NCBI GenBank assembly: GCA_000004695.1
Contig: CM000150.2
Coordinates: 4,448,001 to 4,512,000 of the forward strand
Direction of reading: 5' to 3'
DNA: 64,000 nt
Origin: Dictyostelium discoideum
Taxonomy: Eukaryota
Shown: positions 2,307-37,548 of the stretch, one piece after another
How the letters are laid out: each line of letters starts with the position of its first letter
Position numbering within the stretch: position 1 is the stretch's first letter
The notes under the pieces: generated by a model
What the model saw: the letters and a program-made list of their open reading frames with translations, nothing else
The model's database searches: none
What the model was told of the DNA's origin: nothing
Position numbers and translations under genes: made by a program

Positions 2307-2849
2307 TAATAACAGTTATTGTGATATTTGAAAATTATTATTAAATGAATATTATTTTAATTATTTTTATATTTAAATAAAAATTAAAATTTTAATACTA
2401 TAATAGGATTGTTATTATTAAAATAATATTAATTTATGGATGGATGTGGTTGAGGAATATATTTATCAATCACAAAACAAAACAAAAAAAAAAAAAAAAA
2501 AAAAAACTTAAACAAAAATAAATAAAAAAAAAAAAAGTTTTTTATAATTTTTAATTTTTTGATTTAAAAAAATATAAAATAATATGATAGGCAGTATCTA
2601 TTTTTCTTTTTTTTTTTTTTTTTCAATAAATCGATTTAGTGGGTGGGTGTGTGTTGAAACAAGTAAAAAAAGGAACAAAAATTTAGTTAAAGAAAAAAAT
2701 GTGTGAAAGTGTGTTAATGGACAAAACGAAAAAAAAAATGATTAAATAAAAAAAATAAAAAAATAAAAAAATAAAAAAAAATTAAATAAAATAAAATATA
2801 ATAAAATAAATGAATAAGATTAAAAATATTAAATGAATTATTTAAAAAT

Positions 2850-3080
2850 CCACACACACATACACACACCTTTCCTCCACCTCACCACTCCTTATTAATT
2901 TTTAAATGATAATAATTAATACATAATCACTAGTATAATCATAATTACTATTACTTATTAATATTGGTAGTATTTGTGTTAAAATATTATAGTGGTTGTG
3001 GTGTGTGAGTGGGTGTGTGTGTGTGGGTGTGTGGGTGTGTGTGTGTATGTGTTTGTTTTGTTGTGGTGGAGGATGAAACC
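2850..3080. promoter_or_regulatory. Inverted pair of CA-rich and GT-rich elements flanking about 110 bp of AT-rich spacer. Resembles Dictyostelium G-box/CAE (GBF-type) regulatory elements.
   Basis: 2850-2895 reads ccacacacacatacacacacc...cctccacctcaccactcc. 2996-3075 reads gtggttgtggtgtgtgagtgggtgtgtgtgtgtgggtgtgtgggtgtgtgtgtgtatgtg...gtggtggagg, approximately the reverse complement. These GC-containing islands stand out from the surrounding >90% AT DNA. G-rich/CA-rich boxes are established cis-elements of Dictyostelium developmental promoters. Calling it a promoter element here is inference. Confidence 0.3.
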
Positions 3081-3992
3081 CCCGCAAGGTATTAATTATA
3101 AACAAAATAGAATTTCAACAAGAATATTTTTTTTGATCTATTGATGGTCATTACAGGGAAATTTTATTCCTACATTTGGTTATTATTATTATTATTAATG
3201 TGAAAAGGGGTTGAGTGGGATATAATTTTTTTTATTTTTTTTTTTTTTTTGTGATTTTTTAAATTTTGGAAACTGGTAAAAACATTAATGAAAGATGATG
3301 TTGTTTATTTTTATTATTATCATTATTATTATTAACGTCATTTATTTCTATTAATTATTATATTATATTATTATATTAAACTTTAGTATTATTTAATAAT
3401 AATTACCATGTACATTTAAACATTTAAAAAAAATAATAATAATAATAATAGTGTGTGTGGTAAATAATAAAAATAAAATAAAATAAATAAAAATCCTCTG
3501 ATGATTCAAAGGGTTTGAAGAGTAATTATTTCCAATGTAATCGTAATAATCATAATTTATTAAAGCGACAAAACACAAAAAAGGAATAAAAAAAAATAAA
3601 AAAAAATTAAAATACAAAATTATTGTGATTTTTTTTTGTTGATTAATTGTGATTGATTGATTGATAAATAATTGATTGTGAACGATTAATTAATTAATTA
3701 TTAGGATTTAGGGTAATAAATCCTTTTTTTTTTTTTTTTTTAATTAAAATAAAAATAAAAATAAAAAAAAAATAAAAAAATAAAAAAATTTGAAATAATT
3801 AAATTTGGTTATATTCTATTTCCTAAACTTTCCATTAAACCTATAATTATAAAAATAAAATACATTTTTTTTTTTTTTTTTAAAAAAAACATACCTATAA
3901 TATTGAATATTCATTTTTTTTTTTTTTTTTTTTTTTTTTGAATAAGTAATTTAATATTTTTTGAGGATTGAATAATGTTTGTATTTATATAA

Positions 3993-7278: not shown

Positions 7279-8370
7279 ATCAAGGTATTATTTTTATTGA
7301 ATACCCTAACGCAAAAGAATAGTTTTTTCCAATTACCCACTTAAATTTGTTAAAAAATTTAAAAATTATTATTAGTTGACATGCTCTGTAATATAAAATA
7401 AACTTATTTTTAAGTTAATACACTCATTTACATAAATAATTACCAAACCAACCATTAAACAAATAAAATAAATAAATATTTTTATTTTTCATTGGTCATT
7501 TTTTAAAACCCTATTATTAAATAGTTTATCAACTATTAGATTTTATGACGAGCTTGCGTGGTTATTTATTAGATTTTTTTTTTTTCCAAAAAAAAATAAA
7601 AAAAAAAACAACCACAAACCAAAAAAAAAAAAAAAAATAATAATAATAATTATAATAATAATAAAAATAATAATAATACTATTAAATGACAATAGGGGAA
7701 AAAAAAATATTGCAGTTATTGTTGTTTATTATTTATCTTTCACACCATCATTAAATTTTATGAAAAAAAAAATGAATAAAAATGATATAAATGGTCCTAT
7801 CGATAATTTTAAAAATTAAGTTTTTTTTTATCCTATTTTTCTATTTTAAGATAATTAGATAGAAAATGGTAAAAACGATTTTTTTTTTTTTTTTTTTTTA
7901 AAACAGTTTTTTTTTTTTTTTAAACTATTATTTAATCTTTCGTTTTATTAAAAAAACAATATTAATTGGATAAATAATTATATAATTACAATGCATTATT
8001 ATAAAATTAAAGTTTTAAAAACTAAAAAATAGTAGTAAAATAAAAATAATAATGATGCTAAAGAAAGAGAAAAAAAAAAAAAAAAAGCATTTATTAAAAT
8101 TTGAGATGTTATAATATCGAACAATCAAAAAAAAAAAATTTTAATTTAATTAAAGGAATTCTAAATTTCCTTCTTAAAAAAATAGAGTTTAAAAGGAATT
8201 CTAAATTTCCTTTTTAAAAAAAAGTAAATTTGGAAAAAAAAAAATATATATAATAGGTATATTTTTATTTTTATTTTTTTTATTTTTTTATTTTTTTATT
8301 TTTTTTTTATTTTTTTTAAAAAAAAAAAAAAAAATTTTGAAATTTAATATAAAATAAAAAAAACAACACG

Positions 8371-8760
8371 ATGAACATAAAAAATATATTAAACAAAGGA
8401 ATATTTATTGTACCAATAACTGTTGCCATTCATAATTATCTATTTACAATATATGTTGACAAAGGAGAGAAAAAAATAAATAACAATAGTAATAATAATA
8501 GTAATAATAATAATAGTAATAATAATAATAATGATGATATACATTTAAACCCATCAAAAAGATATGAAATGATAACAGCTGATAAAAATGGGGAAATCTT
8601 ATCAATATCAACTTCAACTTCAACTAACAATAACAAACACAGTTTACAAAAAGCAAATATAGATAAAACTTTTAAAATATTATTAATAAATAAATTCTCT
8701 AAAAACTATAAACACAATGATATAGTAACAATAATGTATGTGAAAGTTTTGTTTTTTATT

Positions 8761-8798
<38 letters not shown>

Positions 8799-9089
8799 AA
8801 TAATAAATAATAAATGAAAAAAAAAAAATAATAATGTTTTATTAAAACTCTACCTTAATGAAATAGAGATCCAGATAACCCAAATAATACATTAGTTAAA
8901 AAAGTTTTAGCTACAGGTAACGAATTTATACCATTTCCACCTTATACAAATGGCATTCAAGATGGTTTCTTTGTGTATTCTGAACCAACTGTTGATGGAT
9001 TACCAAAAATAGCAGGTCCCATTCCAATTGGATTTATAACAGGAAAGGTGATAACCAATTTATACCCTAATAAATTAAATATTGTATAA
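8371..9089 (+). CDS. Two-exon gene: exon 1 8371..8735, intron 8736..8866 (GTATGT...AAATAG, phase 2), exon 2 8867..9089 (TAA at 9087-9089). About 196 aa. N-terminal hydrophobic anchor followed by a poly-N linker. Product unknown.
   Basis: ATG at 8371 in an AAAATG context. Exon 1 encodes MNIKNILNKGIFIVPITVAIHNYLFTIYV, a transmembrane/signal-anchor-like segment. Consensus Dictyostelium donor gtatgt at 8736. Acceptor aaatag at 8861-8866 restores a clean frame giving ...HNDIVTIIDPDNPNNTLVKKVLATGNEFIPFPPYTNGIQDGFFVYSEPTVDGLPKIAGPIPIGFITGKVITNLYPNKLNIV*. Exon 2 composition is clearly coding, not AT-junk. Confidence 0.55.
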
Positions 9090-9295
9090 AAAAAAAAAAA
9101 AAATGCAAAGAAAAAGGTTTTGAAAATTAAAAAAATTGGAAAATCAAAAAAAAAAAAAAAAAAAAAAAACACGAAACAATAAACAGAAACGTCAACCGAA
9201 TTTTTTTTTTAATAAATATCTTGCTTATTTAACAACATTTTTTTAATTTTTTGATTTTTTTTTTTTTATGATTTTTCTTAATATTATTTTAATTT

Positions 9296-9327
<32 letters not shown>

Positions 9328-9456
9328 CTTTCTTTCCATTTGAAATATAAAAATTAACAATACACAAATAACATCTTTTTTCTAAATTTATTTTTGGTTT
9401 TTATTTTATTTTTTTTTTTTTCCAGAAAAAAAATAAAATAAAATAATTAAATAAAA

Positions 9457-11763
<2,307 letters not shown>

Positions 11764-31607: not shown

Positions 31608-32480
31608 TTATATATTTTTTTTTTGATTTATTGGATTAAATTCACAATCTTTGCAATGATCATTAATGATACCAACTGATTGCATAAAAGCATAAAGGGT
31701 GGTTGTACCAATGAATTTGAAGCCTTTTTTTTTTAAAGCAACAGACATAGCATCGGAAACTTCATTTCTAGTTAATGGTCTACTACCTTGAACACTTGTA
31801 TCACCGGTCACTCTTTGACCAATTGAAGATTTATTATTAACAAATGACCAAATGAATGTTGAGAATTCAATTTTATCTTGATCACGCATCTTTAAATAAG
31901 CTCTTGCATTATCAACTATTGCTTGTAACTTTAAACGGTTTCTGATTAAACCTGTGTTTTTCATTAGACTGTTTTCAATTACCTCTGGTGTAATATTATC
32001 AACAATTAATTTCGGATCGAAATTATAGAAACTATCTCTATAGTTTTGTCTCTTTTTCAATACAGTTATCCACGATAAACCAGCTTGTTGAGCCTCTAAA
32101 CAAATCTTTTCAAATAATCTTTGAGAATCACGATTCTCTTTACCCCATTCATTATCATGATAATGAATATACTCTTCATCTTTAGTTAAACTTATCCAAA
32201 AACATCTCTTTTTACTATCTAATGGTTTAAATCCTTTTTTTTCAATTGGTGCTTTTAATAAATCTTCACCTCCCTCTTCTACTTTTTTATTTTTAATTTT
32301 ATTATTTTTTATATTTGTTGTTTTTTTTTTGACTACTGGAGAATTTACTATTATTGGGGTAGTAGTGGTGGTAGTTGATCTTTGTCTAGTGATAATTCTA
32401 GCTGTTGATGACATAATATAATTATTTGAAGTTGGTATTGAAAATAAATGTTTAAAGGTTGTAAAAGGATATTTAAACAT
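31608..32480 (-). CDS. DNA-3-methyladenine glycosylase I (Tag family, EC 3.2.2.20) homologue. Single exon, 290 aa, with an N-terminal extension of about 95 aa, S/T/K-rich and possibly a targeting sequence.
   Basis: The core aligns by eye with E. coli Tag across its whole length: YIHYHDNEWGKENRDSQRLFEKICLEAQQAGLSWITVLKKRQNYRDSFYNFDP versus IAYHDNEWGVPETDSKKLFEMICLEGQQAGLSWITVLKKRENYRACFHQFDP. Further matches are LIRNRLKLQAIVDNARAYL, FIWSFVNN, ALKKKGFKFIGTTTLYAFMQSVGIINDH. The zinc-snap ligands are conserved: Cys in KRCFW, His in YHDNEWG, and His/Cys in NDHCKDC. Real ATG at 32480-32478 (rc of cat). Stop codon is included at 31608-31610. Confidence 0.85.
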   Translation of the reverse strand: MFKYPFTTFKHLFSIPTSNNYIMSSTARIITRQRSTTTTTTPIIVNSPVVKKKTTNIKNNKIKNKKVEEGGEDLLKAPIEKKGFKPLDSKKRCFWISLTKDEEYIHYHDNEWGKENRDSQRLFEKICLEAQQAGLSWITVLKKRQNYRDSFYNFDPKLIVDNITPEVIENSLMKNTGLIRNRLKLQAIVDNARAYLKMRDQDKIEFSTFIWSFVNNKSSIGQRVTGDTSVQGSRPLTRNEVSDAMSVALKKKGFKFIGTTTLYAFMQSVGIINDHCKDCEFNPINQKKNI

Positions 32481-33556
32481 GAAAGTTTTGAATGAAATAA
32501 TTAATTTAAAAAAAAAGAAAAAAAAAAAGTGTTATTTATTTCAAAAAAAAAAATTAAAATTAAAATTAAAAATTAAAAATAAAAATAAAAATAAAAATAA
32601 AGTAAAAACATTTTTTCATTTTTCCTGGAAATCAACCAAACGGTTTTTATTTTTAAAAAAAAGAAAATATCTCACATTCTCGTTTATCTTCGTATTAATT
32701 ACCAAATCAATTACACACAAACTAGAACTTTTTTTTTTTTTTAAAAAAAAAGAAAAACACAGGATTAAAAAATAAAAATAAAATAAATAAATTAAAAAAA
32801 AAAAAAACAAAAAAAAATTAAATAAAATAATATATAAAAATAGAATAAAATTAGTTATAAAAAAAAAAAAAAAAAAAAAGATTTTTAAAATTATTTACAC
32901 ATGTAAAAAAAAAAAAAAAAAAAAAAAGTAAAATTTTGATTTTATAAAAATTAGTTGTGGAAAAAGTTTTATGATTATAACCATATATTGATTTTTTTTT
33001 CTATTTATATATTCGATTTAAAAAAAAAAAAAAATTTAATCACCAAAAGAAATTCATTAACTTAAAACATCTGAGCACTTTTTTTTTAAAAAATACATAT
33101 TTTAATTTTTCCCTTATATAATTATTACCACTTCACTTTGTAAATTATTATTATAACCATATATAAATTTCAATATTAACGATTTTTGTTTTTTCTATAT
33201 TTTTTTTTTTTTTTTTTAAAAAAAATTTCACAAAAAAGGAAATTTAGTGATGTGGGGGTTACATCTAATTTTAAAAACATATGGAGTGGAGATTTTCAAA
33301 AAAAAAAAAAAAAACAAAAATTTAATATTGCCAAAGTTAGTTTTTTCTAGGCAATGTTTGTACAAGGTGTCATTTGTTGATGTAATATTAAAAAGACTTA
33401 ATTGGTTATATTTATTACTTGTACTCAAATTTAAAAAATAAATTAAATTATATGTATTGATTTTCACTATAAATAAAAGTTTTTTTTTTTTTCATTTTTC
33501 ATTAAAATAATATTTTAAAAAAAAAATAAATAAAAACTAATACTATAAAAAGAAAA

Positions 33557-33909
33557 ATGTCAATTTTTAGTAAGTTTTTTTTTTTTTTTTAAAAAATAAA
33601 AAAAAATTATACACATATATTTATATAAAACTATATTTATTAATAAATTTTTTTTTTTATTTTATATTTTTTTTAGAATCAATTACTTCCTTATCAGTCT
33701 CAAAATCTGTTTCAAAATCATCAATTGGCCAAAGTGGAAATTTTGGAGGTGCACAAACCTCAAACCAAATAACTGGAAATGGTGTTGTTGCAGGTTCAAA
33801 AAAAAGTGCTAGTGGTGTTTATTATCATCATGAAGAATCAAAATCATCTACCACATTTGTTAGTGGAAGTTCTTCTGAAAATGAATTTGTTGGTGCATGG
33901 GGACATTAG
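33557..33909 (+). CDS. hssA/2C/7E-family-like small protein: exon 1 33557..33569 (ATGTCAATTTTTA), intron 33570..33676 (GTAAGT...TTTTAG), exon 2 33677..33909 (TAG). 81 aa: MSIFKSITSLSVSKSVSKSSIGQSGNFGGAQTSNQITGNGVVAGSKKSASGVYYHHEESKSSTTFVSGSSSENEFVGAWGH.
   Basis: Canonical Dictyostelium mini-gene architecture: a 13-nt first exon, gtaagt donor, pure A/T intron, ttttag acceptor. The Ser/Gly-rich product begins MSIF.SI.S.S, as in the HssA/SigN family. Family assignment is from established knowledge of that family's stereotyped N-terminus and composition. Not in the ORF track because it is spliced and shorter than 60 aa per exon frame. Confidence 0.6.
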
Positions 33910-34258
33910 AATATTTAATTTTTATAAACTCTTACTTTTATGTGAAAGTTTTTTAAAATGTAAAGTTACCTAAAGCTAATATTACCATATATAAATAAAT
34001 AAGTAAAATTTTTTTTTTCAAAGTAATGACCTAAAATGTGTGTGAGGGTTTTATTTATTTTTTTTATTTTATAAAGTAAATATGTGTCTTTTTTTAAATA
34101 AAAATATTAAAATACATTAATGTATAATATTTCAAACAATTTTAGCTAGTATAAATTAAATTTTTTTTATTTTTTTTTTTATTTATCAAATATTTAATTT
34201 AAATTAACAAATAAAATATTAAAGAAATAGAAATAAAAATAAAAAAATAAAATTTAAA

Positions 34259-34587
34259 ATGACACTTTTTAGTATTTATATTTTAATTTGTTCTTAATAT
34301 TATTTTTAAATATATTGGTATTAATATATATTTTTTTATTTTTTTTTTTTTTATTTTAATTATAATAGATTCAATTTCATCAATTTCAAATTCAAATGGT
34401 ATCTCTAAAAAAAGTTTAATTGTTAATGTTGATAGTAATACAAATGAAAATGGTGGTAATAGTGTTTCATGGTTAGGTGGATTCGATAGTTGTGGTGGTT
34501 GTGGTGGTTGTGGTGGATTCAATGGTTGTGGTAGTTCAAATTTAAATATTATAAATGTTGATATTGATATTGGTCGTCGTCGTAGAT
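34259..34587 (+). CDS. hssA/2C/7E-family small protein: exon 1 34259..34271 (ATGACACTTTTTA), intron 34272..34378 (GTATTT...TAATAG), exon 2 34379..34587 (TAA). 73 aa: [79 protein letters not shown].
   Basis: The MTLF.SISS N-terminus, CGGCGGCGG core and C-terminal RRRCC are the signature of HssA/2C/7E family members. Same 13-nt first exon plus roughly 107-nt intron layout as the upstream paralogue. The minus ORF 34283..34522 is its antisense shadow. Confidence 0.7.
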
Positions 34588-34999
34588 GCTGTTAATCACC
34601 ATTTATAAATAAATATTTTCAATTTTTATAAATATTTATCTTAATTTTAAATTTCAAATAAATAAAACAACCTAAATATTTAAATTGTTTAGTTTTATTT
34701 TTATTTTTAAGTTTTTGGCGAGTATACTTTTTTTCTTCAATGGGTTCATATTTCATTTTTTTTTTTTTTTTTTTTTTTTTTTATTGCAAAATAAAAAATT
34801 AACACCGTTTAAAAATAGAAATAAAAATTACAATAAAAAAAAAAAAATTACCCAAATTAATTTTAAAATTTTAAATAATCCTTTTTTTTTAACAAAAAAA
34901 AAAAAATTTAAGCGCCAAAATAAATCCATTAAATTAAAATAAAATTTTTTTTTCATTTTTTTTTCATTTTTTTATTTTTTTTATAATTTTTAAAAGGAA

Positions 35000-36724
35000 A
35001 TGAGAAAAAAAATCAAAATTGAATATGAGGAAGAAGATAATGAAAATAATAATAATTTAAGTGATATTACAGAAGATGAAGATAATAGTGATGAAGATTA
35101 TGTTGAAAGAAAGAAAAAACCAACAACTAAAAAAACCAATTCTAAAGTTAAAAAGAATAATACAACCACCACTACTACTACAACCAAAACTTCAATTAAA
35201 GTTAAAGATGAATCAATTGAATCAATTGAATTAAAACCATGTCAACATAGTTTAAAATTACATAAATTTAAAAATAAACAAGAGATTCAAGAGATTAGAG
35301 AATCAATGTTAGGATGGTATGAAAAGAATAAAAGAGATTTACCATGGAGAAAGCATGATAATTCACTTGACGAGAATGTTATAGCTTATAGAGTTTGGGT
35401 ATCAGAGATAATGTTACAACAAACTAGAGTGGCCACTGTAATTGAATACTTTAATAAATGGATTGAAAAATGGCCAACTATCAATGACCTCGCATCTACA
35501 ACAATTGAAGAAGTCAATAAAGTTTGGTCAGGCCTTGGTTATTATAGACGTGCTAAAAACCTATGGTTAGGTTCAAAATATGTAGTTGACAATTTCAATT
35601 CTAAGATTCCATCAGATGTTAAATCATTATTAGAAATCAATGGTATTGGTCCATATACAGCTGGTGCAATTTCATCTATTGCTTTCAATAAACCTGTACC
35701 ATTAGTTGATGGAAATGTAATTAGAGTGTTAAGTCGTGTTAGATCAATTGGTGCAAATCCAAAACTATCTTCAACAGTTAAATTATTTTGGGAATTAGGT
35801 AATGATTTAGTTGAATCTGTTGAAAATCCTTGTAATTTCAATCAATCCCTAATGGAATTGGGTGCCACCATTTGTTCTGTTCAATCACCACAATGTAAAC
35901 AATGTCCAATTCAATCAAATTGTCAAGCATATCAACAAGAGAAACAATTTATAAAACCTGAACCAAAAAATTCAATTTCAAAATTTTTTCAACCAAAAAA
36001 TAATAATAATACAAATGATATAGAATCATCATCATCATCAACAAAACCAATAGTAACATTAAATTTAACTGATATTTGTAAAATTTGTCAAAGTTTTGAA
36101 GATTCTGATGGTCCAACTGAAAGTGTTTGTAGATATCCAAAAAAAGTTTTAAAAACAAAAGCTAGAGATGAAAATGTAAACGTATTTTTAATTCATCAAA
36201 CAAAAAGTAATTTATTTTTATTAACTCAACGTCCTGATACTGGTTTATTAGCATCATTATTTGAAGCACCATCAATTATTGAAGAACTTCAATCAAAAAG
36301 AAAAATTAAAAAAGATAAAGAAGATGATAATAGTGAAGAAGAAGAAGAAGAAAATGATAAAAGTGAAGAAAGTGATGATGATGATGATGAAAAGAATTCT
36401 AAAAAAAGGAAAAAACCAACAACAAAGAAAACAACAAATAAAATAACAAAAGAATTTATAGAAAAAGAAATTTTAAAGAAATTATTTAAATCATCAACAG
36501 ATATAACAATTAAATCTGTTAAATCTATTGGAACAGTTTTACATAAATTCTCACATATTAATCAAACATTAACAGTTTATGATTGTCCATGTGATTTTAA
36601 AAAAGAACCAATTCCAAATGATAAATCTAAAACTAAAAATATTTGTTGGTTAAAACTTGATGAAATTCAATCATCAGTTGGTGTTTCAAAACAAATGTTA
36701 AAATGTTTTGATTTAATAAAATAA
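35000..36724 (+). CDS. A/G-specific adenine DNA glycosylase, MutY/MUTYH homologue. Single exon, 574 aa. Acidic/basic N-terminal extension, HhH-GPD catalytic domain with a [4Fe-4S] cluster loop, C-terminal NUDIX-like 8-oxoG recognition domain with an acidic insert.
   Basis: MutY-family signatures: MLGWYEKNKRDLPWR, AYRVWVSEIMLQQTRVATVIEYFNKWIEKWPT (catalytic Glu in VSEIMLQQT), GLGYYRRAKNL, GIGPYTAGAISSIAF, LVDGNVIRVLSR (catalytic Asp). Fe-S cluster loop is CSVQSPQCKQCPIQSNCQAYQ (C-x6-C-x2-C-x5-C). The C-terminal part reads VFLIHQTKSNLFLLTQRPDTGLLASLFEAPS (NUDIX-like). ATG at 35000. Stop codon included at 36722-36724. Confidence 0.85.
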   Translation: MRKKIKIEYEEEDNENNNNLSDITEDEDNSDEDYVERKKKPTTKKTNSKVKKNNTTTTTTTTKTSIKVKDESIESIELKPCQHSLKLHKFKNKQEIQEIRESMLGWYEKNKRDLPWRKHDNSLDENVIAYRVWVSEIMLQQTRVATVIEYFNKWIEKWPTINDLASTTIEEVNKVWSGLGYYRRAKNLWLGSKYVVDNFNSKIPSDVKSLLEINGIGPYTAGAISSIAFNKPVPLVDGNVIRVLSRVRSIGANPKLSSTVKLFWELGNDLVESVENPCNFNQSLMELGATICSVQSPQCKQCPIQSNCQAYQQEKQFIKPEPKNSISKFFQPKNNNNTNDIESSSSSTKPIVTLNLTDICKICQSFEDSDGPTESVCRYPKKVLKTKARDENVNVFLIHQTKSNLFLLTQRPDTGLLASLFEAPSIIEELQSKRKIKKDKEDDNSEEEEEENDKSEESDDDDDEKNSKKRKKPTTKKTTNKITKEFIEKEILKKLFKSSTDITIKSVKSIGTVLHKFSHINQTLTVYDCPCDFKKEPIPNDKSKTKNICWLKLDEIQSSVGVSKQMLKCFDLIK

Positions 36725-36789: not shown

Positions 36790-37548
36790 TTATTTTAATT
36801 TTACTGATACAGCTTGTCTACCTAATTGTCTCCATCTTTTTAAAAATAAATTTTTAGGATATTTTTCAATTTTACCTGTATGTGGATCAGTGATTATTAC
36901 AACATTTTCAATCTCATCAAATCCTGATAAGGTTGCACAATGTTCAGGTGATACCCAATAAAGTGGTTGTGATTGATTTTTAATATCAAACCATTCATCA
37001 GTAATTTTTGGTTCTTTTAATTCTAATGTCATCCAAATTATAATTGGTGCGTTATTAAATATCATATGATTTTTTAAAATTTCAAAATCTTCTTCACCAT
37101 TATTATTATTATTATCATCATTTTCAAAATAATTTAATCTTGATTCAATATAATCTTTAGTTTCATTTTGTTTAATTAAATATTTAAATTTATTTATATT
37201 TGTTTGTGTTAAATCAATTACTTCAATATGTTGATTTTCATTATCTTGATATATAACTTCTTTTATTAAATTATAAATTGGTTTATGAAATATACCAAAT
37301 GATTCTTTTGAATAAGGTGATCCAATAAATGCACGATATGGATTACCACAAAAATTTGTAATTGGGTCTGGGTCTTGTTCTTTTATAATCTTATCTGCTA
37401 ATGATTCATTTGTAATTTTATATGTACTAATATTTAAATTATGACTTTTAATTAATGAATTTAATAATATTGATGTTGCTGTAACTTCACAACCAGTTGG
37501 TAATAAAGGATATTGATTTTGTGCTTTTGTTTCAATTTCAACTATCAT
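36790..37548 (-). CDS. Papain-fold, peptidase C39-like domain protein (BtrH/C39_2-like). Single exon, 252 aa. Function unknown.
   Basis: The N-terminal Q...C motif reads ETKAQNQYPLLPTGCEVTATSILLNSL, with Gln then Cys at the head of a helix as in C39-like peptidases. The C-terminal His/Asp motif reads YWVSPEHCATLSGFDEIENVVIITDPHTG, with His followed by Gly-aromatic-Asp. The assignment is by motif pattern only. Confidence 0.4.
   Translation of the reverse strand: MIVEIETKAQNQYPLLPTGCEVTATSILLNSLIKSHNLNISTYKITNESLADKIIKEQDPDPITNFCGNPYRAFIGSPYSKESFGIFHKPIYNLIKEVIYQDNENQHIEVIDLTQTNINKFKYLIKQNETKDYIESRLNYFENDDNNNNNGEEDFEILKNHMIFNNAPIIIWMTLELKEPKITDEWFDIKNQSQPLYWVSPEHCATLSGFDEIENVVIITDPHTGKIEKYPKNLFLKRWRQLGRQAVSVKLK

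Follow-up and report, generated by a model that had tools for sequence, protein, structure and literature searches.

The locus lies in a 64,000-nucleotide stretch of Dictyostelium discoideum AX4 chromosome 1 (referred to here as the window), and the features identified are listed below in window coordinates.

31608-32480, minus strand: Tag ORF, 290 aa, uninterrupted and without an intron (from the ORF list)
31632-32210, minus strand: Tag catalytic domain, aa 91-283, delimited by alignment to E. coli and S. typhi Tag
32211-32480, minus strand: Tag N-terminal extension, aa 1-90, delimited by composition
33557-33909, plus strand: mini-gene 1 (DDB_G0270240), 81 aa; exon 1 33557-33569, intron 33570-33676, exon 2 33677-33909
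34259-34595, plus strand: mini-gene 2, 79 aa; exon 1 34259-34271, intron 34272-34368, exon 2 34369-34595
35000-36724, plus strand: myh, MutY/MUTYH adenine DNA glycosylase (dictyBase DDB_G0270764), 574 aa, no intron
36790-37548, minus strand: C39-like peptidase gene DDB_G0270242 (Pfam PF13529, E 6e-19; exact protein match)

The Tag ORF encodes a bacterial-type 3-methyladenine glycosylase that is already annotated in D. discoideum, its product being 100% identical to the NCBI entry 'DNA-3-methyladenine glycosylase I [D. discoideum AX4]'. Based on this product name and on the single Tag found in D. discoideum, rather than on coordinates, the gene is very probably dictyBase magA (DDB_G0271050). 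Residues 99-281 match Pfam Adenine_glyco (PF03352, E 3e-62), and the protein was shown to align with the Tag structures of E. coli and Salmonella (1LMZ, at 193 bits, as well as 1P7M, 2OFI and 2OFK) across the entire catalytic domain, with 53-59% identity over the trimmed domain. Alignment and residue indexing revealed that all four zinc-snap ligands (C93, H108, H275 and C279, corresponding to C4, H17, H175 and C179 of E. coli Tag) and the 3mA-pocket residues W95, Y104, Y107, E129 and W137 are retained, consistent with the preliminary description of a bacterial-like, intron-less Tag with four zinc ligands. Unlike its bacterial counterparts, the D. discoideum protein is a eukaryotic one, encoded in the nucleus by a gene of AT-rich codon usage, its composition being host-like throughout (GC 28%, GC3 16%), and it carries a disordered, targeting-like N-terminal extension of ~90 aa and a 7-residue loop insertion around aa 225-235. 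Tag is predicted to act as a monofunctional zinc-snap HhH glycosylase, which would strip 3-methyladenine (and 3-methylguanine) from alkylated DNA.

The extension contains no acidic residue before position 68, includes 15 S/T among its first 40 residues and harbours a basic cluster (KNNKIKNKK) at residues 58-66. Its acid-free, S/T-rich and net-positive start resembles a mitochondrial presequence, while the K-rich cluster that follows resembles a nuclear localisation signal, suggestive of subcellular targeting of Tag. Tag of D. citrinum and D. firmibasis shares this layout, as does the complete ORF of D. purpureum, whereas T. lacteum, Heterostelium, Synstelium and Acytostelium lack it or have a different one; the extension is thus conserved within group 4 only, other dictyostelids possessing different N- or C-terminal tails. 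The targeting-like S/T/K-rich extension reported previously is present, at about 90 aa.

The second glycosylase gene, myh (chr1 4483000-4484724 in the supplement of PMC6198379), encodes a protein with Pfam HhH-GPD (aa 134-266), HHH and C-terminal NUDIX_4 domains, a 4Fe-4S motif (C292-x6-C-x2-C-x5-C308) located after HhH-GPD, and a CKIC motif at 360-363. Structure alignment showed that the catalytic-motif segments VWVSEIMLQQT and VDGNVIRVL are kept, and mammalian MUTYH (7EF8, 7EF9, 8FAY and 3N5N) represented the best structural match over residues 87-431, with 276 bits for the mouse and human proteins versus 202 bits for bacterial MutY. Myh and mammalian MUTYH share the same architecture of HhH-GPD, Fe-S cluster, interdomain connector and NUDIX domain, and the connector CxxC aligns with CQLC of mouse MUTYH. 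Unlike the mammalian protein, Myh bears an acidic/basic N-terminal tail of 85 aa and, within the NUDIX-like domain, an acidic/basic insertion of ~55 aa that repeats the N-terminal KKKPTTKKT segment as an internal duplicate. The order of MutY hits tracks the species tree (dictyostelids, followed by plants, animals, Balamuthia and Acanthamoeba) and, judged by sequence similarity, Myh is a eukaryotic MUTYH passed on by vertical descent. It is predicted to remove adenine opposite 8-oxoguanine by means of its Fe-S HhH-GPD domain and a NUDIX-like 8-oxoG-recognition domain. Pfam domains, solved-structure alignments and conserved residues thus corroborated the original identification of both enzymes.

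Tag and myh are divergent, with start codons 2519 bp apart, and hence face away from each other across 2.5 kb as first described. Exactly two small spliced genes were identified between them, each with a first exon of 13 nt and an intron of the GT..AG type; apart from these, the interval holds only A/T low-complexity repeats, and neither a tRNA nor an Rfam family was detected in it. The spliced product of mini-gene 1, the ATG of which is at 33557 (one position from the start previously implied), exactly matches XP_646642 ('hypothetical protein DDB_G0270240'), and the gene is prestalk-enriched in published data (PMC6198379). Mini-gene 2 encodes a Gly/Cys-rich CGGCGGCGG motif and an RRRRCC tail; its spliced product has no exact match in the protein collection, and counterparts occur in the same interval of D. 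citrinum (by tblastn) and D. firmibasis (79- and 82-aa genes called there). Neither mini-gene has a Pfam match, and their assignment to the hssA/7E/2C type, a D. discoideum family that numbers about 100 small genes (PMC6198379), is supported by gene structure rather than by a sequence profile. Both share with this family the 13-bp first exon, a single short intron followed by a second exon of ~230 bp, and an MxxF-SIxS start, with prestalk enrichment of mini-gene 1 and the Gly/Cys-rich core of mini-gene 2 as further likenesses. Mini-gene 1 departs from the family in having no Gly/Cys-rich core, and its only annotation is that of a hypothetical protein. An interval containing only two hssA-type mini-genes, as proposed earlier, is consistent with these observations.

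Among the species compared, the Tag-MutY adjacency was shown to be confined to the D. discoideum complex (D. discoideum, D. citrinum and D. firmibasis), the gene order in the latter two being C39, MutY, mini-genes, Tag and a gene for a large protein. In D. purpureum, C39 is followed after ~650 bp by Tag and then by the same large protein, with no MutY remnant in the C39-Tag gap; the MutY gene of this species is located on a different scaffold, GL871222, next to a peroxiredoxin gene, and the window contains none of the genes neighbouring it there. The Tag loci of T. lacteum, H. album and A. subglobosum contain neither MutY nor C39 within 10 kb, and T. lacteum MutY has unrelated neighbours. The synteny comparison suggested in the preliminary description thus revealed no co-localisation outside the D. 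discoideum complex, which argues against the adjacency being meaningful. Within group 4, Tag ancestrally neighboured the C39-like peptidase gene, which now delimits the inserted block on its far side. We infer that a ~4.3 kb block comprising myh and the two mini-genes was placed between C39 and Tag in the ancestor of the D. discoideum complex, the adjacency being a by-product of this local rearrangement; a single species, D. purpureum, bears on the direction of the event (insertion in the complex or loss in that species), and synteny does not extend to the deeper outgroups. By our own estimate, ~0.02 glycosylase pairs would be expected within three gene positions (~10 genes among about 12,500), making this proximity unusual for glycosylases alone, but unremarkable given the many functional categories that a reader might notice.

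The interpretation favoured here, with a probability of roughly 0.8, is that Tag and Myh are independent, ordinary base-excision-repair genes brought together by a rearrangement in the D. discoideum complex, Tag being probably of ancient bacterial origin and Myh vertically inherited. An abasic site left by either enzyme would be passed to the general AP-endonuclease, polymerase and ligase steps, and the two would have nothing else in common. It is highly improbable that they constitute a co-regulated functional repair mini-cluster kept by selection. Both enzymes start base-excision repair, both belong to the HhH superfamily, both genes are expressed in vegetative cells and the arrangement is kept in three close species; however, these species share 73-96% protein identity, such that too little time for rearrangement would suffice, and the arrangement is absent from the four other species mentioned above. 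Tag and myh furthermore have no shared promoter, because two developmentally regulated mini-genes separate them, and published RNA-seq profiles differ: TPM values in cup, stalk, spore and vegetative cells are about 21, 3, 0.4 and 18 for magA, about 0.2, 0.06, 0.2 and 5.4 for myh, and about 11, 42, 15 and 0.1 for mini-gene 1 (PMC6198379 supplement), with magA holding its vegetative level in cup cells while myh falls ~25-fold. Synteny thus largely refutes a selected cluster, and the coordinated regulation raised earlier is not supported, given the intervening genes and the expression profiles. Less probable still is a recent horizontal acquisition of Tag that landed beside the resident MutY gene, for which the lack of introns and the 55-59% identity to its nearest non-dictyostelid relatives, which are gamma-proteobacteria, could be cited. 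Tag was found in seven dictyostelid genera spanning the main groups (including Dictyostelium, Tieghemostelium, Synstelium, Heterostelium, Cavenderia and Acytostelium). A transfer, if there was one, must thus be older than the adjacency by the entire radiation of the dictyostelids, and domestication next to a resident gene is thereby ruled out. Moreover, Tag is fully host-like in GC and GC3 and bears lineage-conserved eukaryotic extensions, and its locus in D. purpureum is the same without MutY, implying that MutY or the block moved, not Tag. Distribution and synteny refute this proposal as stated and, since the adjacency is young and the expression profiles are unlike, neither co-regulation nor a transferred gene beside a resident one is supported.

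With regard to the origin of Tag, each dictyostelid protein is 48-62% identical to Enterobacterales/Pasteurellales/Orbales-type Tag and 37-47% identical to alpha-proteobacterial, beta-proteobacterial, Firmicutes, Actinobacteria, Bacteroidota and green-algal Tag. Among the best 120 matches of a dictyostelid profile search, dictyostelids were followed only by gamma-proteobacteria, which scored as high as true members of the dictyostelid set. In distance-based neighbour-joining trees (about 180 columns, without plant or non-dictyostelid amoebozoan Tag), dictyostelids grouped with enteric-type gamma-proteobacteria; transfer and classical bootstrap values for this group were 91% and 8-12% with all taxa, and 95% and 51% after pruning of three unstable taxa, while the classical value reached 98% without two green-algal sequences. 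Dictyostelid monophyly received 28-82% support, the second Heterostelium copy not joining the others. Placement with or inside the enteric-type group is thus favoured, and an ancient bacterial origin by horizontal transfer appears likely but not proven. The alternative that Tag is an old eukaryotic gene, passed down vertically and lost many times, and that it resembles enteric Tag through slow evolution of both lineages or through acquisition from bacteria by a far earlier eukaryote shared with green algae, is regarded as possible, though doubtful. Green algae do carry Tag (a Bathycoccus cluster), the large tree places their sequences next to the dictyostelid and gamma-proteobacterial group, Bathycoccus and a relative cluster with dictyostelids in 16-22% of the bootstrap replicates when the second Heterostelium copy is left out, and deep nodes are poorly resolved. 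Nevertheless, this support drops to 0% once that copy is added, dictyostelid Tag is only 39-47% identical to green-algal Tag, and the enteric-type bacteria seldom form a clade of their own (classical bootstrap 9-22%), suggesting that the dictyostelid copies nest inside them. Additionally, no non-dictyostelid eukaryote occurs among the best 120 profile matches, and 25 non-dictyostelid clusters looked up among the remainder of the best 150 cluster representatives yield only Bathycoccus and a contamination-flagged chytrid entry as further named eukaryotes.

Under the favoured interpretation of an anciently bacterial Tag, the gene would most likely have entered the dictyostelid stem lineage from an Enterobacterales/Pasteurellales/Orbales-type gamma-proteobacterium long before the rearrangement, and would subsequently have adapted its codon usage to the host and gained disordered tails of a basic or targeting type. 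Of the earlier suggestion of a horizontally acquired repair gene beside a resident one, the bacterial origin is favoured by identity and trees, whereas settlement next to MutY is at odds with synteny and distribution. Adenine_glyco/Tag is not among the domains quoted in bioRxiv 10.64898/2026.03.01.708701 from the list of D. discoideum bacterial-transfer candidates of Eichinger et al. 2005; the gene exhibits the same pattern as the candidates quoted there, namely a bacterial-type domain, patchy eukaryotic distribution, Proteobacteria as closest relatives and full amelioration. The closest unnamed bacterial group possesses the E. coli-like gene set yiaF-glyS-glyQ-tag-yiaC-yiaD.

The genes considered here occupy the following positions in the window.

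31608-32480, minus strand: Tag (DNA-3-methyladenine glycosylase I), uninterrupted ORF of 290 aa
33557-33909: mini-gene 1 (DDB_G0270240), small spliced gene
34259-34595: mini-gene 2, small spliced gene
35000-36724, plus strand: myh (MutY/MUTYH, DDB_G0270764), uninterrupted ORF of 574 aa
36790-37548, minus strand: C39-like peptidase gene (DDB_G0270242), Pfam PF13529

dictyBase and NCBI already list Tag and myh with the correct functions, and the hssA family to which the mini-genes had been assigned has been described previously. The Tag ORF product was 100% identical to the corresponding NCBI AX4 protein and matched Pfam Adenine_glyco (PF03352) over profile positions 3-175 of 177 (E 3.2e-62; 210 bits, cutoff 25). 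The solved Tag structures of Escherichia coli and Salmonella were shown to align end to end with the Tag of the window (193 bits), while Staphylococcus Tag scored 137 bits. Alignment revealed that all four zinc-snap ligands are retained (C93, H108, H275 and C279, corresponding to Cys4, His17, His175 and Cys179 of E. coli Tag), as are W95, Y104, Y107, E129 and W137, the counterparts of the 3-methyladenine-binding pocket residues of the E. coli enzyme (W6, Y13, Y16, E38 and W46). The identity of the gene, its lack of introns and its intact zinc snap, as put forward in the preliminary description, were thus confirmed. With a GC content of 28% and a GC3 of 16%, the gene is fully ameliorated. Its product is predicted to initiate base-excision repair at alkylation damage (3-methyladenine).

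The assignment of the plus-strand ORF to the MutY family of adenine glycosylases was likewise upheld, as its HhH-GPD domain, Fe-S motif and NUDIX_4 domain are all present. Pfam searches identified HhH-GPD (PF00730, E 3.7e-22), HHH and NUDIX_4 domains, the last of these representing the C-terminal NUDIX-like 8-oxoG recognition domain (PF14815, E 6e-12; 45.8 bits, cutoff 35). The motifs containing the catalytic Glu and Asp (VWVSEIMLQQT and VDGNVIRVL) line up with mouse MUTYH, and a 4Fe-4S loop of the form C-x6-C-x2-C-x5-C is located at residues 292-308 (CSVQSPQCKQCPIQSNC). Among solved structures, mouse and human MUTYH are the closest (276 bits), followed by bacterial MutY (202 bits). Within the D. 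discoideum complex (D. discoideum, D. citrinum and D. firmibasis), homologues were 83-89% identical to the window protein; identity fell to 61% in D. purpureum, 49% in Tieghemostelium lacteum, 48% in Polysphondylium violaceum and 42% in Heterostelium. Further down the ranking came matches from plants, animals, chytrids, Balamuthia and Acanthamoeba. Since this ranking follows organismal phylogeny, myh is a vertically inherited eukaryotic MUTYH. Retroposition as the origin of the intron-less gene was ruled out, as T. lacteum myh is also intron-less and an intron is present in D. purpureum alone. A published table places the gene at chr1 4483000-4484724 (PMC6198379 supplement), so that the window corresponds to chr1 4448001-4512000 of D. 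discoideum AX4. Myh is predicted to initiate base-excision repair at oxidative damage (A opposite 8-oxoG), independently of Tag.

An internal duplication was observed in myh (35071-35154 and 36367-36450), with 71% nucleotide identity over 84 nt. The duplicated segment comprises the N-terminal acidic stretch and a KKKPTTKKT motif, its second copy being inserted within the NUDIX-like domain, and it may represent a duplicated nuclear-localisation segment.

The significance of the Tag-myh proximity was assessed by comparison with the Tag loci of six other dictyostelids (D. citrinum, D. firmibasis, D. purpureum, T. lacteum, Heterostelium album and Acytostelium subglobosum). All three members of the D. 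discoideum complex share a common gene order, consisting of the C39-like peptidase, MutY, two mini-genes, Tag and a large low-complexity protein. In D. purpureum, C39, Tag and this large protein are retained in the same orientation, with approximately 650 bp between C39 and the Tag ORF. MutY is located on another scaffold, adjoining a peroxiredoxin gene, and its neighbours there have no counterpart in the 64-kb window. The genes flanking MutY in T. lacteum are different again. The Tag-MutY neighbourhood is therefore a feature of the D. discoideum complex alone. It is most simply explained if a block of ~4.3 kb, comprising myh and the two mini-genes, came between C39 and Tag in the lineage leading to this complex. 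An ancestral Tag-MutY adjacency, followed by loss of the block in D. purpureum, is formally conceivable. No MutY or mini-gene remnant was detected between C39 and Tag in that species, and neither MutY nor C39 was found within 10 kb of Tag in T. lacteum, H. album or A. subglobosum. The proposal that the two glycosylase genes form a meaningful pair did not survive this comparison, as the arrangement is seen in the D. discoideum complex alone and is missing from four other dictyostelid genomes. Their proximity would instead be a historical accident of lineage-specific rearrangement, and the adjacency carries no functional signal. The locus thereby illustrates how a tempting 'repair gene pair' can fall apart when set against four or five related genomes.

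Within group 4, to which the D. discoideum complex and D. purpureum belong, the C39-like gene and Tag are conserved direct neighbours apart from the block (positions 8136-8971 and 9626-10579 of the fetched D. purpureum locus, L001). PF13529 is a mostly bacterial family, and the sole solved relative of the C39-like protein is a distant bacterial structure (3ERV, E 3e-10). Transfer of Tag and the peptidase gene together as a bacterial island was considered and rejected, as a C39 homologue was located nearby in none of 57 bacterial Tag loci.

Two small spliced genes, and no others, were found in the interval between Tag and myh; both have an exon 1 of 13 nt and a GT..AG intron, and their exon 2 measures 233 nt (mini-gene 1) or 227 nt (mini-gene 2). 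The hssA/7E/2C family, which has about 100 genes, is characterized by a 13-bp exon 1 followed by an exon 2 of ~200 bp (PMC6198379), and because their structure matches this published hallmark the family label fits both mini-genes. The earlier designation of both as hssA-family genes therefore holds with respect to gene structure (13-nt exon 1 and ~230-nt exon 2). A Gly/Cys-rich core is present in mini-gene 2 and absent from mini-gene 1. Neither protein produced a match in a Pfam search, and the spliced product of mini-gene 1 corresponds exactly to DDB_G0270240, annotated as 'hypothetical protein'. Searches of the interval for tRNAs and Rfam families were negative. Hidden RNA genes or mobile-element scars, sought both in the interval and at the block edges, were discounted, as just A/T low-complexity repeats were found. 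An A-rich, 51-nt direct repeat (86% identity) occurs at 33017-33067, ~500 bp upstream of mini-gene 1, and at 34889-34939, ~60-110 bp upstream of myh, and may reflect chance low-complexity similarity.

Coordinated regulation of Tag and myh, which had been raised as a possibility, is not supported. A shared bidirectional promoter was dismissed because two genes intervene, and the cell-type profiles of magA and myh in published RNA-seq data were shown to differ. In these data, TPM values in cup, stalk, spore and vegetative cells were ~21, ~3, ~0.4 and ~18 for magA (DDB_G0271050, DNA-3-methyladenine glycosylase I), ~0.2, ~0.06, ~0.2 and ~5.4 for myh, and ~11, ~42, ~15 and ~0.1 for mini-gene 1, which is strongly prestalk-enriched (1407 in the prestalk column) and expressed late in development (PMC6198379 supplement). 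Here, magA was equated with the Tag ORF of the window by product name rather than by coordinates, because just one D. discoideum Tag was found and the product name is identical.

Tag was identified in Dictyostelium, Tieghemostelium, Synstelium, Heterostelium, Cavenderia and Acytostelium, a distribution from which the gene probably predates the dictyostelid radiation. Its similarity pattern, in contrast to that of MutY, is not clock-like: the D. discoideum protein is 56-59% identical to Gilliamella and Pasteurella Tag, 58% to that of D. purpureum and 49% to that of T. lacteum. A profile search with a query built from eight dictyostelid catalytic domains returned, after the dictyostelids, only gamma-proteobacteria among its best 120 matches (Orbaceae, Pasteurellaceae, Budviciaceae and one further group), with no other eukaryotes among these 120. 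The gamma-proteobacterial scores (293-310 bits) equalled those of Heterostelium and Acytostelium Tags. In the further gamma-proteobacterial group, tag is surrounded by yiaF, glyS, glyQ, a yiaC-like acetyltransferase gene and a yiaD-like lipoprotein gene, and the same genes surround tag, less compactly, in E. coli K-12. In an alignment trimmed to 182 columns, the nine dictyostelid Tags each averaged 48-62% identity to the enteric-type group (Enterobacterales/Pasteurellales/Orbales-type gamma-proteobacterial Tags), which equals the identity among dictyostelid Tags themselves. Identities to other gamma-, beta- and alpha-proteobacteria, Firmicutes, Actinobacteria, Bacteroidota and two green-algal sequences were 37-47%. 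An AT-composition artefact as the source of the similarity to Gilliamella and Pasteurellaceae was rejected, as E. coli, with a GC content of ~50%, is nearly as close (47-58%) and the sampled Firmicutes, Bacteroidia and Gracilibacteria are not.

Neighbour-joining trees of 66 taxa, in which dictyostelids were the only Amoebozoa and the green lineage was represented by two algal sequences, placed the dictyostelid Tags with or inside the enteric-type group. With all 66 taxa, the node uniting the two received 91% transfer bootstrap and 8-12% classical bootstrap support; these values were 95% and 51%, respectively, after pruning of three unstable taxa, and classical support was 98% without the green-algal pair. 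The green-algal sequences grouped with dictyostelids in 16-22% of replicates, a proportion that fell to 0% after addition of the second Heterostelium copy, and support for dictyostelid Tag monophyly ranged from 28 to 82%. Most of the long, eukaryote-looking Tag representative sequences are metagenome proteins. These results make ancient transfer from a gamma-proteobacterium of the enteric type the best-supported, though not demonstrated, origin of dictyostelid Tag, with a probability of roughly 55-70%. The sole alkylation glycosylase of Tag type in social amoebae is, on fairly consistent evidence, enteric-bacterial in type. A fuller scenario, put at slightly better than even, is that magA derives from an Enterobacterales-type gene which entered the dictyostelid stem prior to its radiation and later gained tails resembling mitochondrial presequences and nuclear-localisation signals, the second H. 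album copy perhaps being a separate acquisition.

No paper on D. discoideum Tag, its origin or the Tag-myh pair was found in the literature. Tag/Adenine_glyco is absent from those domains of the 2005 genome paper's bacterial-transfer list (Eichinger et al. 2005) that are quoted in bioRxiv 10.64898/2026.03.01.708701. Tag is one more candidate among the bacterial genes domesticated by bacterivorous amoebae, its probable bacterial ancestry being a modest addition to a well-known Dictyostelium phenomenon.

The terminal regions of the dictyostelid Tags were shown to be variable. In the D. discoideum complex and in the full D. purpureum ORF, the first ~60 residues are free of acidic residues, rich in S/T and net positive; K-rich clusters come next. 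Conservation of this N-terminal extension is confined to group 4; its composition is reminiscent of a mitochondrial presequence with a nuclear localisation signal after it, suggestive of targeting to mitochondria and/or the nucleus. Acytostelium and Synstelium Tags possess shorter, different N-terminal leaders and K-rich C-terminal tails, and one T. lacteum copy has a C-terminal tail alone. The NCBI model of D. purpureum Tag (184 aa, 'partial') is cut short, as the ORF (L001 9608-10579) extends upstream to an MFSNL... start, yielding a protein of ~317 aa with an N-terminal extension of the same type as in D. discoideum. The Cavenderia fasciculata model apparently lacks a conserved internal segment.

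Two species were found to carry more than one Tag gene. T. lacteum encodes two intron-less paralogues 7 kb apart (2593-3273, minus strand, and 10001-10807, plus strand, of its fetched locus, L002), which are 58% identical to each other and pair in the large tree. H. album has two tandem genes (8861-9814 and 10001-10986 of locus L069), one of which, the second Heterostelium copy referred to above, encodes a 317-aa protein with eukaryote-style low-complexity acidic/basic insertions. This protein is 55-58% identical to E. coli-type Tag and 46-51% to dictyostelid Tags, and in the most frequent bootstrap outcomes its nearest sequence was always gamma-proteobacterial; it could represent either an old paralogue that has evolved slowly or a second acquisition.

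Furthermore, a 387-aa protein with two tandem Tag domains (P0006) is encoded on a 14-Mb contig of the bee moth Aphomia sociella. It could be the product of a bacterial gene integrated in the moth genome, or stem from contamination or a symbiont in the assembly; both of its halves fall in the enteric/Orbales-type clade.
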